Sequence record: MW822011
DNA: 64,000 bases
Strand: one strand, 5' to 3'
Source of the DNA: Shigella phage TB004
How positions within the stretch are numbered: the first letter of the stretch is position 1; each line of letters opens with the position of its first letter. The notes under the pieces are model-generated. The model made no database searches and had not been told where the DNA came from. It saw nothing but the letters and a program-made list of their open reading frames with translations. A program made the position numbers and the translations under genes. Below, piece by piece: positions 15,411 through 30,048 of this stretch.

Positions 15411-15466
15411 TGTTTACAAGTCCCTCGTGTTGTGTTATAGTAATCTTACTGACATAACATGAGGAC
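15411..15466 (+). repeat. 56-bp early-promoter cassette, copy 1 (GTTTAC, 17-nt spacer, TATAGT, then a downstream stem-loop/RBS segment); PeSL-like
   Basis: 55 of 56 nt identical to 29670-29725; ends at the alc start. Confidence 0.75.
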
Positions 15467-18457: not shown

Positions 18458-18733
18458 ATGTTTCCGACTTACTCTAAAATCGTAGAAGTAGTGTTTAGCC
18501 AAATTATCGCTAATAACATGTTTGAAAAGCTTGATAATGCAGCTGAACTTCGAATCCACGCTCAAGTGACTCATGTATTGAACGCTTTGCTTCCAGACCA
18601 AGTGGATTCTATTGCAATTACGCTGTATCCAGGTTCCGCGCATATCATTGTCGTATTTGGTCTTGATGCTGAGTTAGTTATCAAAGGCGATATTCGCTTT
18701 GAATCGCAGACATCAGAATTCAAAGCAATTTAA
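18458..18733 (+). CDS. Hypothetical protein (91 aa)
   Basis: Small ORF in the pseT-cd interval. Confidence 0.5.
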   Translation: MFPTYSKIVEVVFSQIIANNMFEKLDNAAELRIHAQVTHVLNALLPDQVDSIAITLYPGSAHIIVVFGLDAELVIKGDIRFESQTSEFKAI

Positions 18734-18735
18734 TA

Positions 18736-18765
18736 GTTTACTTTAAGGCAGAGTTGTGATATTAT
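18736..18765 (+). promoter_or_regulatory. Early promoter-like element
   Basis: GTTTAC, 17-nt spacer, TATTAT, upstream of ORF 18796. Confidence 0.45.
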
Positions 18766-18795
18766 AGCTCTACCAAAACAAATGAGGAAATTGAA

Positions 18796-25289: not shown

Positions 25290-25558
25290 TGTTTGTCGTT
25301 CACACTATTTATGAAAATGAAGGTAATACTACACGTGATTACGGTCACGTAAATCAATTTTTTAGATGCAATCCAGAATTCCGAGCTCAAAAAGACGAAC
25401 GAATTTTTAAAAAATGTGTAGAGCAAGGTTTCATTTACGTCAAGCATTGGATGCAAGGAAATAAAGTTAGAACTACATATCATAAGTCTTTGCCTGAGCT
25501 TAATGATGAATTGATTTATAATAGAGCTGTAAACCAAACCTTGAAGGATGAGCAATGA
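25289..25558 (+). CDS. Hypothetical protein (89 aa)
   Basis: Overlapping junctions with both neighbours. Confidence 0.5.
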   Translation: MFVVHTIYENEGNTTRDYGHVNQFFRCNPEFRAQKDERIFKKCVEQGFIYVKHWMQGNKVRTTYHKSLPELNDELIYNRAVNQTLKDEQ

Positions 25559-27018
25559 TTCTTAAAATTCTGAATGAAATAGCATCTATTGGATCAACTA
25601 AGCAGAAGCAAGCAATTCTTGAAAAGAATAAAGATAATGAATTGCTTAAACGGGTATATCGTCTGACTTATTCTCGTGGGTTACAGTATTATATCAAGAA
25701 ATGGCCTAAACCTGGTATTGCTACCCAGAGTTTTGGAATGCTGACTATTACCGATATGCTTGACTTCATTGAATTCACGTTAGCTACTCGGAAATTGACT
25801 GGAAATGCAGCAATTGAGGAATTAACTGGATATATCACTGATGGTAAAAAGGATGATGTTGAAGTTTTACGTCGAGTTATGATGCGAGACCTTGAATGCG
25901 GTGCTTCAGTATCTATTGCAAACAAAGTTTGGCCAGGTTTAATTCCTGAACAACCTCAAATGCTGGCAAGTTCTTATGATGAAAAAGGCATTAGTAAGAA
26001 TATCAAGTTTCCAGCTTTTGCACAGTTAAAAGCAGATGGAGCCCGGTGTTTTGCTGAAGTTCGAGGCGATGAATTAGATGATGTTCGTCTTTTATCACGA
26101 GCTGGTAATGAATATCTAGGATTAGATCTTCTTAAGGAAGAATTAATCAAAATGACTGCTGAAGCCCGCCAGATTCATCCAGAAGGTGTGTTAATTGATG
26201 GCGAATTGGTATACCATGAGCAAGTTGAAAAAGAGCCAGAAGGCCTAGATTTTCTTTTTGATGCTTATCCTGAAATTAGTAAAGCTAAAGAATTCGCCGA
26301 AGTAGCGGAATCTCGTACTACTTCTAATGGAATCGCCAATAAATCCTTAAAAGGAACCATTTCTGAAAAAGAAGCTCAATGCATGAAGTTTCAGGTCTGG
26401 GATTATGTCCCGTTGGTAGAAATATACGGTCTTCCGGCGTTTCGTTTAAAATATGATGTACGTTTTTCTAAACTAGAACAAATGACATCAGGATATGATA
26501 AAGTAATTTTAATTGAAAACCAGGTAGTAAATAACCTAGATGAAGCTAAGGTAATTTATAAAAAGTATATTGACCAAGGTCTTGAAGGTATTATTCTCAA
26601 AAATATCGATGGATTATGGGAAAATGCTCGTTCAAAAAATCTTTATAAATTTAAAGAAGTAATTGATGTTGATTTAAAAATTGTAGGAATTTATCCTCAC
26701 CGTAAAGACCCTACTAAAGCAGGTGGATTTATTCTTGAATCAGAGTGTGGAAAAATTAAAGTAAATGCTGGTTCAGGCTTAAAAGATAAAGCCGGTGTAA
26801 AATCACATGAACTTGACCGTACTCGCATTATGGAAAACCAAAATTATTATATTGGAAAAATTCTAGAGTGCGAATGCAACGGTTGGTTAAAATCTGATGG
26901 CCGCACTGATTACGTTAAATTATTTCTTCCAATTGCGATTCGTTTACGTGAAGATAAAACTAAAGCTAATACATTCGAGGATGTATTTGGTGATTTTCAT
27001 GAGGTAACTGGTCTATGA
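25555..27018 (+). CDS. 30: ATP-dependent DNA ligase
   Basis: 487 aa, MILKILNEIASIGSTKQKQAILEKNKDNELLKRVYRLTYS...; adenylation lysine context FAQLKADGARCF; matches T4 DNA ligase. Confidence 0.95.
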   Translation: MILKILNEIASIGSTKQKQAILEKNKDNELLKRVYRLTYSRGLQYYIKKWPKPGIATQSFGMLTITDMLDFIEFTLATRKLTGNAAIEELTGYITDGKKDDVEVLRRVMMRDLECGASVSIANKVWPGLIPEQPQMLASSYDEKGISKNIKFPAFAQLKADGARCFAEVRGDELDDVRLLSRAGNEYLGLDLLKEELIKMTAEARQIHPEGVLIDGELVYHEQVEKEPEGLDFLFDAYPEISKAKEFAEVAESRTTSNGIANKSLKGTISEKEAQCMKFQVWDYVPLVEIYGLPAFRLKYDVRFSKLEQMTSGYDKVILIENQVVNNLDEAKVIYKKYIDQGLEGIILKNIDGLWENARSKNLYKFKEVIDVDLKIVGIYPHRKDPTKAGGFILESECGKIKVNAGSGLKDKAGVKSHELDRTRIMENQNYYIGKILECECNGWLKSDGRTDYVKLFLPIAIRLREDKTKANTFEDVFGDFHEVTGL

Positions 27019-27203
27019 AAGCTTACTTAGAAACAATTGTCGTGGCTCAAAAAGAAGGTGGAGATGTTTCTACTTCTGTATCACAAATCGTTCTTGAATT
27101 TGTAGATGCATATGCTTATAATAAATTCACAGAAACATTTGATGCCTATGAAAAAGGTCCAAAGTTTGAAATATATCGTACTCTCTTACCATTAGATTAT
27201 TAA
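27015..27203 (+). CDS. Hypothetical protein (62 aa)
   Basis: Small ORF coupled to the ligase stop; followed by a hairpin. Confidence 0.5.
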   Translation: MKAYLETIVVAQKEGGDVSTSVSQIVLEFVDAYAYNKFTETFDAYEKGPKFEIYRTLLPLDY

Positions 27204-27226
27204 AGGCCTTCGGGCCTTTAATTTTA
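27202..27226 (+). terminator. Hairpin (AAAGGCC-ttcg-GGCCTTT) with an A/T-rich tail
   Basis: 7-bp stem with UUCG tetraloop, between ORF 27015 and alt. Confidence 0.55.
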
Positions 27227-27261
27227 TAAATAGAATAAGAATAAACACTAGAGAGGATATG

Positions 27262-29310
27262 ATGGAACTCATTACAGAATTATTTGACGAAGATACTACT
27301 CTTCCGATTACAAACTTAAATCCAAAGAAGAAAATACCGCAAATTTTTTCAGTTCATGTTGATGACGCAATTGAACAACCAGGCTTTCGTTTATGTACCT
27401 ATACATCTGGAGGTGATACTAACCGTGATTTAAAGATGGGCGATAAAATGATGCATATTGTTCCTTTTACATTAACTGCTAAAGGTTCAATTGCTAAATT
27501 AAAAGGTCTCGGTCCAAGCCCAATTAATTACATCAATTCAGTTTTTACTGTTGCGATGCAGACGATGCGGCAGTATAAAATTGATGCCTGCATGCTTCGT
27601 ATTCTTAAGTCTAAAACTGCTGGTCAAGCTCGACAAATTCAAGTTATTGCTGATAGACTTATCCGTAGTCGTTCAGGTGGCAGATACGTCCTTCTTAAGG
27701 AACTCTGGGATTATGATAAAAAGTATGCATATATTCTTATACATCGCAAAAATGTATCACTAGAAGACATTCCAGGAGTTCCGGAAATTAGTACCGAGCT
27801 CTTTACTAAAGTTGAATCGAAAGTCGGCGATGTTTATATCAATAAAGATACTGGAGCTCAAGTAACTAAAAATGAGGCAATTGCAGCATCTATCGCACAA
27901 GAAAATGATAAACGTTCTGACCAAGCTGTTATTGTTAAAGTTAAAATTTCCCGTAGAGCAATTGCGCAAAGTCAATCATTAGAATCTTCTAGATTTGAAA
28001 CACCAATGTTTCAAAAATTTGAGGCTTCAGCAGCAGAATTAAATAAACCCGCCGACGCGCCTTTAATTTCTGATGCTAACGAATTAACTGTTATTTCTAC
28101 TTCAGGATTTGCATTAGAGAATGCTCTTAATAGTGTTACAGCTGGAATGGCATTCAGAGAAGCTTCTATAATTCCTGAAGATAAAGAATCTGACGTTAAT
28201 GCAGAAATAAAAAATAAAGCTTTAGAAAAATTACGAAAAGAATCTATTACTTCAATAAAAACTTTAGAAACTATTGCTTCTATCGTCGATGATACTTTAG
28301 AAAAATATAAAGGTGCTTGGTTTGAAAGAAATATTAACAGACATTCGCATTTAAACCAAGATGCTGCAAATGAGTTAGTACAAAATTCTTGGAATGCAAT
28401 AAAAACAAAGATTATTCGAAGAGAATTACGTGGATATGCTCTTACCGCTGGATGGTCATTACATCCTATAGTCGAAAATAAAGATTCATCTAAATACACA
28501 CCAGCGCAAAAACGCGGAATTCGTGAATATGTAGGTTCAGGATATGTAGACATGAATAATGCTCTTTTGGGATTATATAATCCAGATGAGCGTACAAGTA
28601 TTTTAACAGCACCTGAAATAGAACAAGCCATTGATAATTTAGATTCAGCCTTTAAAAATGGTGAACGATTACCAAAAGGTATTACTTTGTATCGTTCACA
28701 ACGAATGTTACCTTCAATATATGAAGCACTGGTAAAAAATCGAGTTTTTTATTTTAGAAATTTTGTATCAACATCATTATATCCAAACATTTTTGGTACT
28801 TGGATGACTGATTCAGCTGTGGGTGTTTTACCAGATGAAAAGCGTCTAAGCATTTCTGTCGATAAAAATGATGAAGGGCTTGTTAATTCTAGCGATAATT
28901 TAGTTGGAATTGGATGGGTTATTACTGGAGCTGATAAAGTCAATGTTGTTTTACCCGGTGGAAGTTTAGCACCTTCAAATGAAATGGAAGTCATTTTGCC
29001 ACGTGGATTAATGGTCAAAGTCAATAAAATAACTGATGCATCTTACAACGATGGAACAGTTAGAACTAACAACAAGCTTATTCAAGCTGAAGTTATGACC
29101 ACAGAAGAACTCACCGAATCGGTAATTTATGACGGTGACCGTTTAATGGAAACTGGTGAATTGGTTACAATGACAGGTGATATAGAAGATAGAGTTGACT
29201 TTGCATCGTTTGTTTCATCAAATGTTAAACAGAAAGCAGAATCATCTCTTGGAATTATTGCGTCTTGCATAGATATTGCAAACATGCCTTACAAGTTCGT
29301 TCAAGGATAA
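27262..29310 (+). CDS. alt: Alt, virion-packaged ADP-ribosyltransferase
   Basis: 682 codons from ATG at 27262; MELITELFDEDTTLPITNLNPKKKIPQIFSVHVDDAIEQPGFRLCTYTSGGDTN...; GAGGA SD. Confidence 0.9.
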   Translation: MELITELFDEDTTLPITNLNPKKKIPQIFSVHVDDAIEQPGFRLCTYTSGGDTNRDLKMGDKMMHIVPFTLTAKGSIAKLKGLGPSPINYINSVFTVAMQTMRQYKIDACMLRILKSKTAGQARQIQVIADRLIRSRSGGRYVLLKELWDYDKKYAYILIHRKNVSLEDIPGVPEISTELFTKVESKVGDVYINKDTGAQVTKNEAIAASIAQENDKRSDQAVIVKVKISRRAIAQSQSLESSRFETPMFQKFEASAAELNKPADAPLISDANELTVISTSGFALENALNSVTAGMAFREASIIPEDKESDVNAEIKNKALEKLRKESITSIKTLETIASIVDDTLEKYKGAWFERNINRHSHLNQDAANELVQNSWNAIKTKIIRRELRGYALTAGWSLHPIVENKDSSKYTPAQKRGIREYVGSGYVDMNNALLGLYNPDERTSILTAPEIEQAIDNLDSAFKNGERLPKGITLYRSQRMLPSIYEALVKNRVFYFRNFVSTSLYPNIFGTWMTDSAVGVLPDEKRLSISVDKNDEGLVNSSDNLVGIGWVITGADKVNVVLPGGSLAPSNEMEVILPRGLMVKVNKITDASYNDGTVRTNNKLIQAEVMTTEELTESVIYDGDRLMETGELVTMTGDIEDRVDFASFVSSNVKQKAESSLGIIASCIDIANMPYKFVQG

Positions 29311-29313
29311 ATC

Positions 29314-29699
29314 ATGGAACTTATTACAGAATTATTTGACGGCGCTTCGGCGCCGGTTGTTAACTTAAATCCTAAGCATAAAATACCACAAATTTTTGCT
29401 ATTCAAGCCGGCGAAGAAAGCGTGCTTCCTGGATTTAGATTTTGTACATACACCTCTGGCGGTGATACGAATAAAACGTTAAGCCGGGCGATAAAATGAT
29501 GCATATCGTAATGATAGGTGTTAATGAGAAACTATCATTAGTTAAGCTTAAAAACTTGGGTGGAAATCCAATTGGTGTCATTAATGCTGTTTTTGATACT
29601 GCTCTTCAAACAATGAAACAGTATAAAATCGACGCATGCCTATTACGCGTACTAAAAAGTTCAAAATGTAGTTTACAAGTCCCTCGTGTTGTGTTATAG
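29314..29699 (+). pseudogene. Frameshifted, 3'-truncated paralog of the alt 5' region (two short ORFs)
   Basis: MELITELFD...NLNPKHKIPQIF...PGFRFCTYTSGGDTN parallels Alt residues 1-53; a 1-nt length difference gives a TGA, and the next frame resumes MMHIV...QTMKQYKIDACLLRVLKS parallel to Alt residues 64-117; similarity ends at the promoter cassette. Confidence 0.75.
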
Positions 29700-29725
29700 T
29701 AGTCTTACTGACATAACATGAGGAA
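29670..29725 (+). repeat. 56-bp early-promoter cassette, copy 2 (PeSL-like)
   Basis: 55 of 56 nt identical to 15411-15466; ends just before ORF 29732. Confidence 0.75.
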
Positions 29726-29731
29726 CACAAA

Positions 29732-30022
29732 ATGAAATCTTCTTTACGCTTTTTAGGTCAAGAACTTGTAGTTGAAGGCGTTATTCCTGCTGATAACGCT
29801 TTTAATGAAGCGGTTTACGACGAATTTATCAAAATTTTTGGAACAGATAAAAAGTTCGGAATTTTTCCTTCTGAAAATTTTTCAAAGCCAGAACAGACTG
29901 AAAGCATTTTCCAAGGTGTAGTAACAGGTAAATTTGAGTCAGAAGCTCCGGTAAAAATTGAAGTTTATATTGAAGACAATTTAGTTGCTTCAGTTGCTGC
30001 TTTTATTTCATTCCGTAAATAA
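29732..30022 (+). CDS. Hypothetical protein (96 aa)
   Basis: ORF driven by promoter cassette copy 2; convergent with gene 54 and followed by a shared hairpin. Confidence 0.6.
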   Translation: MKSSLRFLGQELVVEGVIPADNAFNEAVYDEFIKIFGTDKKFGIFPSENFSKPEQTESIFQGVVTGKFESEAPVKIEVYIEDNLVASVAAFISFRK

Positions 30023-30026
30023 AAAT

Positions 30027-30048
30027 ATGGGGACCGAAAGGTCCCCAT
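30027..30048. terminator. Bidirectional hairpin terminator (ATGGGGACC-gaaa-GGTCCCCAT) between convergent ORF 29732 and gene 54
   Basis: 9-bp stem with GNRA loop, exactly between the two convergent stop codons. Confidence 0.7.

Follow-up and report, generated by a model that had tools for sequence, protein, structure and literature searches.

The alt locus

The window analysed here is a 64,000-nt stretch of the Shigella phage TB004 genome (MW822011), and the genome from which it comes is a Tequatrovirus of the T4 type. The genes around alt run in the order DNA ligase, alt.1, alt and alt.-3 (Table 1), and alt.-3 is followed on the other strand by the baseplate genes 54 and 48. The remnant of a second alt paralog, referred to here as alt2, lies on the strand of the early genes, with alt on one side and alt.-3/gene 54 on the other, as it does in T4. 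Across the 901 nt around the remnant, identity is 97.2% with T4 and reaches 99.1% with other T4-type phages. The intact Alt protein of the window carries PF03496 at residues 374-614 (Pfam search, E 1.3e-33). The alt gene has two in-frame ATGs at 27259-27264 (ATGATGGAA); the ORF listing begins at 27259, and the second ATG (27262) is the start that matches both the T4 annotation and the alt2 copy. The possibility of genes on the other strand at the remnant was considered and rejected, the minus-strand ORFs 29435-29581 and 29581-29730 having no PHROG match.

Table 1. Features of the alt region in the window, and lesions carried by the same stump in related phages
Feature	Position	Strand	Details and basis
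DNA ligase	25555-27018	+	first in the gene order upstream of alt
alt.1	27015-27203	+	between DNA ligase and alt
T4 late-promoter motif TATAAATA	27225-27232	+	upstream of alt; exact motif match
alt	27262-29310	+	full-length Alt ADP-ribosyltransferase, 682 aa, parent paralog; ORF, T4T annotation
Remnant of second alt paralog (alt2)	29314-29660	+	codons 1-116 of alt2; homology
alt.-1 ORF	29314-29499	+	61 aa, last 8 codons in shifted frame; T4T/T4 annotation, phrog_23015
Frameshift site, A4 run	29473-29476	+	A5 in full-length and N2/SG1 alleles
alt.-2 ORF	29496-29699	+	67 aa; T4T/T4 annotation, phrog_15247
Deletion junction	29652-29660	+	single surviving 9-nt repeat CTAAAAAGT; T2 has two copies
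Relic of last codons of ancestral paralog and its TAG stop (29669-29671)	29661-29671	+	TCAAAATGTAG, identical to T2 ...TCTAAAAAGTTCAAAATGTAG (end of T2_202)
Early-promoter/leader cassette for alt.-3	29671-29724	+	54 nt; promoter scan, repeat search
alt.-3	29732-30022	+	96 aa, DUF5498, gene served by the cassette; PF17602, E 6e-64
Terminator-like hairpin between alt.-3 and gene 54	30027-30048	both	terminator scan
Second cassette copy, between rnlA (gene 63) and alc	15412-15465	+	one mismatch to 29671-29724
Lesion: GAA to TAA stop, codon 6 (E6*)			SG1, HY03, F1, IME537 (SD1-type relatives); same junction
Lesion: 7-nt tandem duplication			HY03; same junction
Lesion: 9-nt deletion			F1; same junction
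Lesion: -1 in T-run			IME537; same junction
Lesion: -1 in junction A-run			F25; same junction

The original prediction, made from the letters of the window and a list of its ORFs, described a diverged repeat of about the first 117 codons of alt directly after that gene, and alignment bears this out. By blastn the remnant matches the 5' region of alt with 72% nucleotide identity over 200 nt (E 3.8e-26) and, in a second segment, 69% over 72 nt; the repeat is also seen when 27262-27700 and 29314-29731 are aligned with MAFFT. That alignment contains one in-frame gap of 3 nt near codon 10 and one frameshifting gap of 1 nt in the GGDTN...KMMHIV segment. The single-nucleotide loss had likewise been predicted, along with the resulting TGA and the resumption of the other frame at MMHIV, and both the alignment and the ORFs agree. 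Because one A is missing from the A-run, the remnant is split into the two ORFs alt.-1 and alt.-2. The TGA of alt.-1 (29497-29499) overlaps the ATGATG start of alt.-2 (MMHIV, at 29496) in the form ATGA; an AAGGA lies upstream of the alt.-1 ATG, and alt.-2 crosses the deletion junction into the promoter, where its TAG stop (29697-99) falls inside the -10 box.

With one A restored in the run, the remnant translates to 128 aa. Residues 1-116 of this repaired form are 62.4% identical to residues 1-117 of Alt (E 5.8e-49), and the form matches positions 2-120 of the profile phrog_802 (Alt-like; E 5.5e-51). A Pfam search with the 61-aa, 67-aa and repaired 128-aa products found no domain, the PF03496 catalytic domain being absent. 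By homology of its N-terminal module the remnant is thus Alt-like, and by the catalytic domain it is not.

The remnant is the alt.-1/alt.-2 region of T4, which is already annotated and known as a pseudogene remnant. In the T4 records (AF158101, HM137666; UniProt P39495, P39494) these ORFs occupy the same position between alt and alt.-3, and the deletion junction, the A4 frameshift and the ORF lengths of 61 and 67 aa are all as in the window; the junction CTAAAAAGTTCAAAATGTAG and the A4 run are common to the window, T4T and the T4 reference. Over 418 nt the T4 records are 97.8-98.3% identical to the window, the differences being a few point changes. The relevant note in the T4 reference GenBank entry describes alt.-1 and alt.-2 jointly as the product of an old duplication, covering the first part of alt, that gained a stop codon, and the note on them in the T4T entry describes a deletion plus a further frame shift in a second copy of alt. 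Nolan et al. (2006, PMC1524935) count alt.-1 and alt.-2 of T4 among the paralogous duplications of alt, and they report that phage 44RR has an alt duplicate of full length. No relevant account of what the second alt copy does turned up in a search of the literature.

The frameshift is not an artefact, because the same sequence and length recur across independent records. The 418-nt stretch is 100% identical in vB_EcoM_112 and G2540-3, and about 50 of the 60 best records, many independent T4 sequences among them, have the same length. The A4 run itself was read directly in the T4 reference, T4T, Lv5cm, IME537, F25, HY03, F1 and two IMG/VR contigs. That the frameshift stems from a sequencing error was accordingly rejected, given the same length and sequence in dozens of independent records. 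At one other site the T4 reference does stand alone: codon 17 of alt.-1 reads ACA in AF158101.6 and AAC in T4T, the window and all other alleles (alignment columns 50-51). This swap of adjacent bases probably reflects an old error in the sequencing of the reference.

A full-length second alt in relatives, and its decay

When the 901-nt region was compared with phage records, 503 Tequatrovirus records matched, and 90 of these (the T4-type phages) matched the full query. In a sample spread evenly over the ranking, nearly all of the others match only query positions 1-461, across 462 nt of their own sequence (one base more), and are annotated with two Alt-like genes. A full-length second alt is present at this position in about 80% of the 503 records, T2 included. 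In T2 the gene is T2_202, a 685-aa ORF (L005:4615-6672) directly after alt; its product aligns with Alt over the full length (40.7% identity, E 5e-158) and carries PF03496 at residues 416-620. The gene order in T2 is alt, full-length alt2, the same promoter cassette immediately afterwards, and then alt.-3. Elsewhere the full-length gene goes under the names 'alt_2', 'alt.-2' (RB51) and 'Alt-like RNA polymerase ADP-ribosyltransferase'.

The first 116 codons of full-length alt2 in T2 and most Tequatroviruses are 98% identical to the remnant (98.3% protein identity to residues 1-116 of T2_202), and its neighbours, alt upstream and the cassette and alt.-3 downstream, are those of the window. The window differs from it in lacking 1,699 bp, which include the whole PF03496 domain, and in having one A fewer. 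A full-length tandem paralog is thus the common state, and the stump of the T4-type phages is the derived one. The idea of a decaying tandem duplicate in the original prediction therefore holds, with a full-length second alt in T2 and most Tequatroviruses and with lesions that differ among phages; the proposed comparison with the alt-flanking ORFs of T4 and its relatives has yielded the same ORFs in T4 and the full-length copy in T2. The converse reading, with the short form ancestral and the long form derived, was rejected: the T2 alt2 aligns to the whole of Alt and has the catalytic domain, and the repeat described next occurs twice in T2 and once in the window.

The sequence CTAAAAAGT is found in T2 alt2 at L005:4954 (codons 114-116) and again at L005:6653 (19 nt from the gene end), 1,699 bp apart. 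In the window it occurs a single time, exactly at the junction, and is followed by the 3' end of T2 alt2, now out of frame. The two T2 copies of the repeat lie in different frames, so that the frame created by the deletion passes the former TAG by and continues through the promoter. As read from these sequences, the pattern is that typical of deletions between short direct repeats, and it points to replication slippage or to short-homology illegitimate recombination. The position of the junction is thereby fixed to the nucleotide, with a 9-nt repeat and a loss of 1,699 bp. In IMG/VR the exact junction was found in only two contigs, and a protein-based search of IMG/VR gave only 10 loci, numbers too small for statistics on populations.

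The A-run distinguishes the alleles further. Full-length alleles, together with N2 and SG1, have A5 (AATAAAAAC or AACAAAAAC), and the window, T4, T4T, Lv5cm and others have A4 (AATAAAAC). Phage N2 carries the deletion but keeps A5; its 128-aa ORF is therefore unbroken, and the product is the same as the repaired translation of the window. Intermediate states thus exist, and because N2 has the deletion without the shortened run, we infer from N2, together with SG1, that the deletion preceded the frameshift. The original prediction had held that a single intact reading frame would make this a second functional alt-like gene; the intact frame of N2 speaks against that, since it encodes only 128 aa and no catalytic domain.

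Both events resemble classes of mutation known from the laboratory. Deletions between short direct repeats, familiar from T4 and E. coli mutagenesis, have the repeat at both ends and retain one copy, as is seen here with 9 nt (Albertini et al. 1982, as cited in PMC4122927). Set beside laboratory mutants of this class and of the frameshift class, the locus is a natural, fixed example and otherwise nothing unusual. Frameshifts of the Streisinger type occur in homopolymer runs, and the loss of 1 nt from the A5 run here fits that type.

Further lesions have accumulated independently on the same junction (Table 1, last five rows). The allele sequences read are about a dozen of the roughly 90 T4-type ones. 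Among them, the tail of alt.-1 in its shifted frame is LNQ in T4 and LSR in the window, and the differing sites are silent in the ancestral frame. Substitutions private to the deletion-type alleles number about 5 non-synonymous to about 5 synonymous, too few for statistical proof of neutrality, and the private changes of T2 about 9 synonymous to 1 non-synonymous; small as the numbers are, these ratios suggest relaxed constraint in the deletion-type alleles.

Taken together, the locus is very probably a non-functional relic of a tandem alt paralog, left by a repeat-mediated deletion and a later frameshift in which the cassette had no part. In the ancestral state, alt would have been followed by a full-length 685-aa alt2 with an ADP-ribosyltransferase domain, the early promoter cassette and alt.-3. 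The T4-type lineage would then have lost 1,699 bp of alt2 between the two CTAAAAAGT repeats, and codon 116 would have become fused, in the wrong frame, to the gene's final 11 nt, with the result that the frame entered the alt.-3 promoter. The product of that step would be a 128-aa ORF without the catalytic domain, as in N2 today, and the later loss of one A from the A5 run would have divided it into ORFs of 61 and 67 aa. The sole working element of the interval would be the early promoter of alt.-3 at its 3' end, which would be older than the deletion. The locus is in this respect a textbook case of phage gene decay, with a tandem paralog, a short-repeat deletion, a homopolymer frameshift and scattered lesions, and as such it matters little. 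It does make T4 exceptional among its relatives, in that T4 is without a fourth ADP-ribosyltransferase, the full-length Alt2, and this absence may bear on comparisons of host takeover by T2, T4 and T6.

Two observations concern the alt genes more generally. The alt of the window is a mosaic relative to that of T2, with 91-99% identity over the first ~750 nt, ~50-65% from ~750 to 1800 nt, and 78-98% at the 3' end; overall the two proteins are 70% identical. In vB_EcoM_KAW1E185 (NC_054922) there is a hybrid single alt (L006, 2963-5020) that is 95-100% similar to T2 alt up to about nt 1800 and then 93-95% similar to alt2 to its end, apparently because the tandem paralogs underwent an unequal crossover in which one gene length was lost.

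Expression and possible products of the stump

The late-promoter motif lies 29 nt before alt, and late transcripts that pass through alt and on into the remnant probably start, to judge from the sequence, at this promoter (27225). The terminator scan gave no + strand terminator-like site between alt and 30027, and the stump would on that account be part of the alt transcript. In T4 omics data alt is classed as late (PMC9697503); in the T4 time-course of the same study (Table S2) the RNAs of alt.-1 and alt.-2 were detected (class 'middle') and their proteins were not detected, and alt.-3 and alc were early as RNA and as protein. Transcription of the stump would then be passive, through late transcripts from the alt late promoter and read-through, and its translation incidental. 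Upstream of alt, a GC-rich hairpin aaaggccttcgggccttt comes right after alt.1 (window 27204-27232), with the TATAAATA motif at 27225, so that the arrangement before alt is a terminator and then a late promoter; the hairpin is absent from the list of the terminator scan.

Whether anything useful is made from such transcripts has to be weighed. The fragments might work as small proteins: an Alt N-terminal module could carry a capsid-targeting or prohead-protease signal, say, or compete with Alt for packaging. The original prediction had raised a retained targeting or packaging signal. The N-terminus of alt.-1, MELITELFD, is identical to the first 9 residues of Alt, and Alt-like proteins throughout the Straboviridae conserve the N-terminal module as a whole (~112 aa) at 30-45% identity. 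A good Shine-Dalgarno sequence and the ATG of alt.-1 are retained, the ATGA overlap would allow translational coupling of alt.-1 and alt.-2, and N2 has the intact 128-aa frame. In addition, the stump persists in ~90 sequenced genomes, in which it has not been deleted outright. However, a stop occupies codon 6 in four sequenced relatives, several further indels differ by lineage, the shifted-frame tail of alt.-1 varies freely, and in the T4 time-course proteome alt.-3 was detected but these two proteins were not. A head-assembly review contained nothing specific on a capsid-targeting sequence of Alt. Shotgun proteomics easily misses small proteins. On balance we consider functional small proteins very unlikely, and infer that the stump lacks function.

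A more specific version has a product of the stump (the 128-aa form, the 61-aa Alt.-1 with its MELITE motif, or a form fused by slippage) made late from the alt transcript and, by means of the conserved Alt N-terminal module, entering proheads or modulating the packaging of Alt. We regard this as highly improbable.

The promoter cassette and the frameshift site

The 54-nt cassette in front of alt.-3 contains a -35 box GTTTAC, a -10 box TATAGT at 29695-29700 and a GAGGA at 29720-24. As a promoter it reads TTTACA-17-TATAGT, with 10 matches in 12 and a TG before the second hexamer; the early-promoter consensus is TTTACW-N17-TAYWAT (Comeau 2014, PMC4122927). The cassette was found at 997 places in 499 Tequatrovirus records, exactly two per genome, at alc and at alt.-3. 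In the undeleted T2 gene the G of the TAG stop also belongs to the GTTTAC -35 box, and in KAW1E185 the cassette likewise comes directly after the undeleted gene.

These facts bear on the breakpoint proposed in the original prediction: a partial tandem duplication that ended where it did through recombination at the promoter cassette, a mechanism of the kind put forward for PeSL elements. Similarity to alt was said to stop at the start of a 56-bp cassette; it does end near the cassette, at 29660, but this is 10 nt before position 29671, where a cassette of 54 nt begins. That proximity, with a second copy 14.3 kb away, is what speaks for cassette recombination. Against it, the cassette sits right after the full-length gene in T2, and the breakpoint was therefore not set by the cassette. 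The junction is a 9-nt repeat within coding sequence, and 29661-29671 is the gene's own 3' end. Nor is there a copy at the 5' breakpoint, because in the 499 records each genome has just the two copies, at alc and alt.-3. With the T2 and KAW1E185 sequences showing the cassette already in place, and with this copy count, a breakpoint mediated by the cassette is hardly credible and was rejected in favour of a deletion between the CTAAAAAGT repeats in alt2.

The PeSL cassettes of T4-type phages (Arbiol 2010, PMC2839356; Comeau 2014, PMC4122927) share with the 54-nt element an early promoter that fits the consensus and repetition within the genome. They differ from it in having a stem-loop/terminator next to the promoter, whereas here the terminator scan gave no + strand hairpin adjoining 29671 and the upstream sequence is the 3' end of the former gene. 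In a PeSL-mediated rearrangement the indel breakpoints would lie in flanking cassette copies, whereas both breakpoints here are CTAAAAAGT inside the coding sequence of alt2, and the window cassette has only two copies per genome.

Scarcely any credence can be given to recoding, by -1 slippage of Lys-tRNA on A_AAA_UGA (29493-29499) or by transcriptional slippage on the A-run, as a route to a deliberate single product of ~128 aa: the frameshift does lie in a homopolymer run, and ATA AAA TGA allows P-site tRNA-Lys to re-pair one base back and then read ATG ATG CAT, but a canonical X_XXY_YYZ heptamer is lacking, the A-run has no more than 4 nt here and is polymorphic (A4 or A5), the conserved slippery site and the upstream ORF open in relatives that define a programmed frameshift are not found, relatives instead having stop codons or extra indels, and the fused product would still be without the enzyme domain.

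The two cassette copies differ from each other at 1 position in the window and at 4 in T2, which hints at occasional gene conversion between the loci 14 kb apart. The window also holds another early-promoter-like pair of repeats, 1567-1603 and 18731-18767 (GTTTAC...TATAATAG and TATTATAG; family D2), which are 70% alike.
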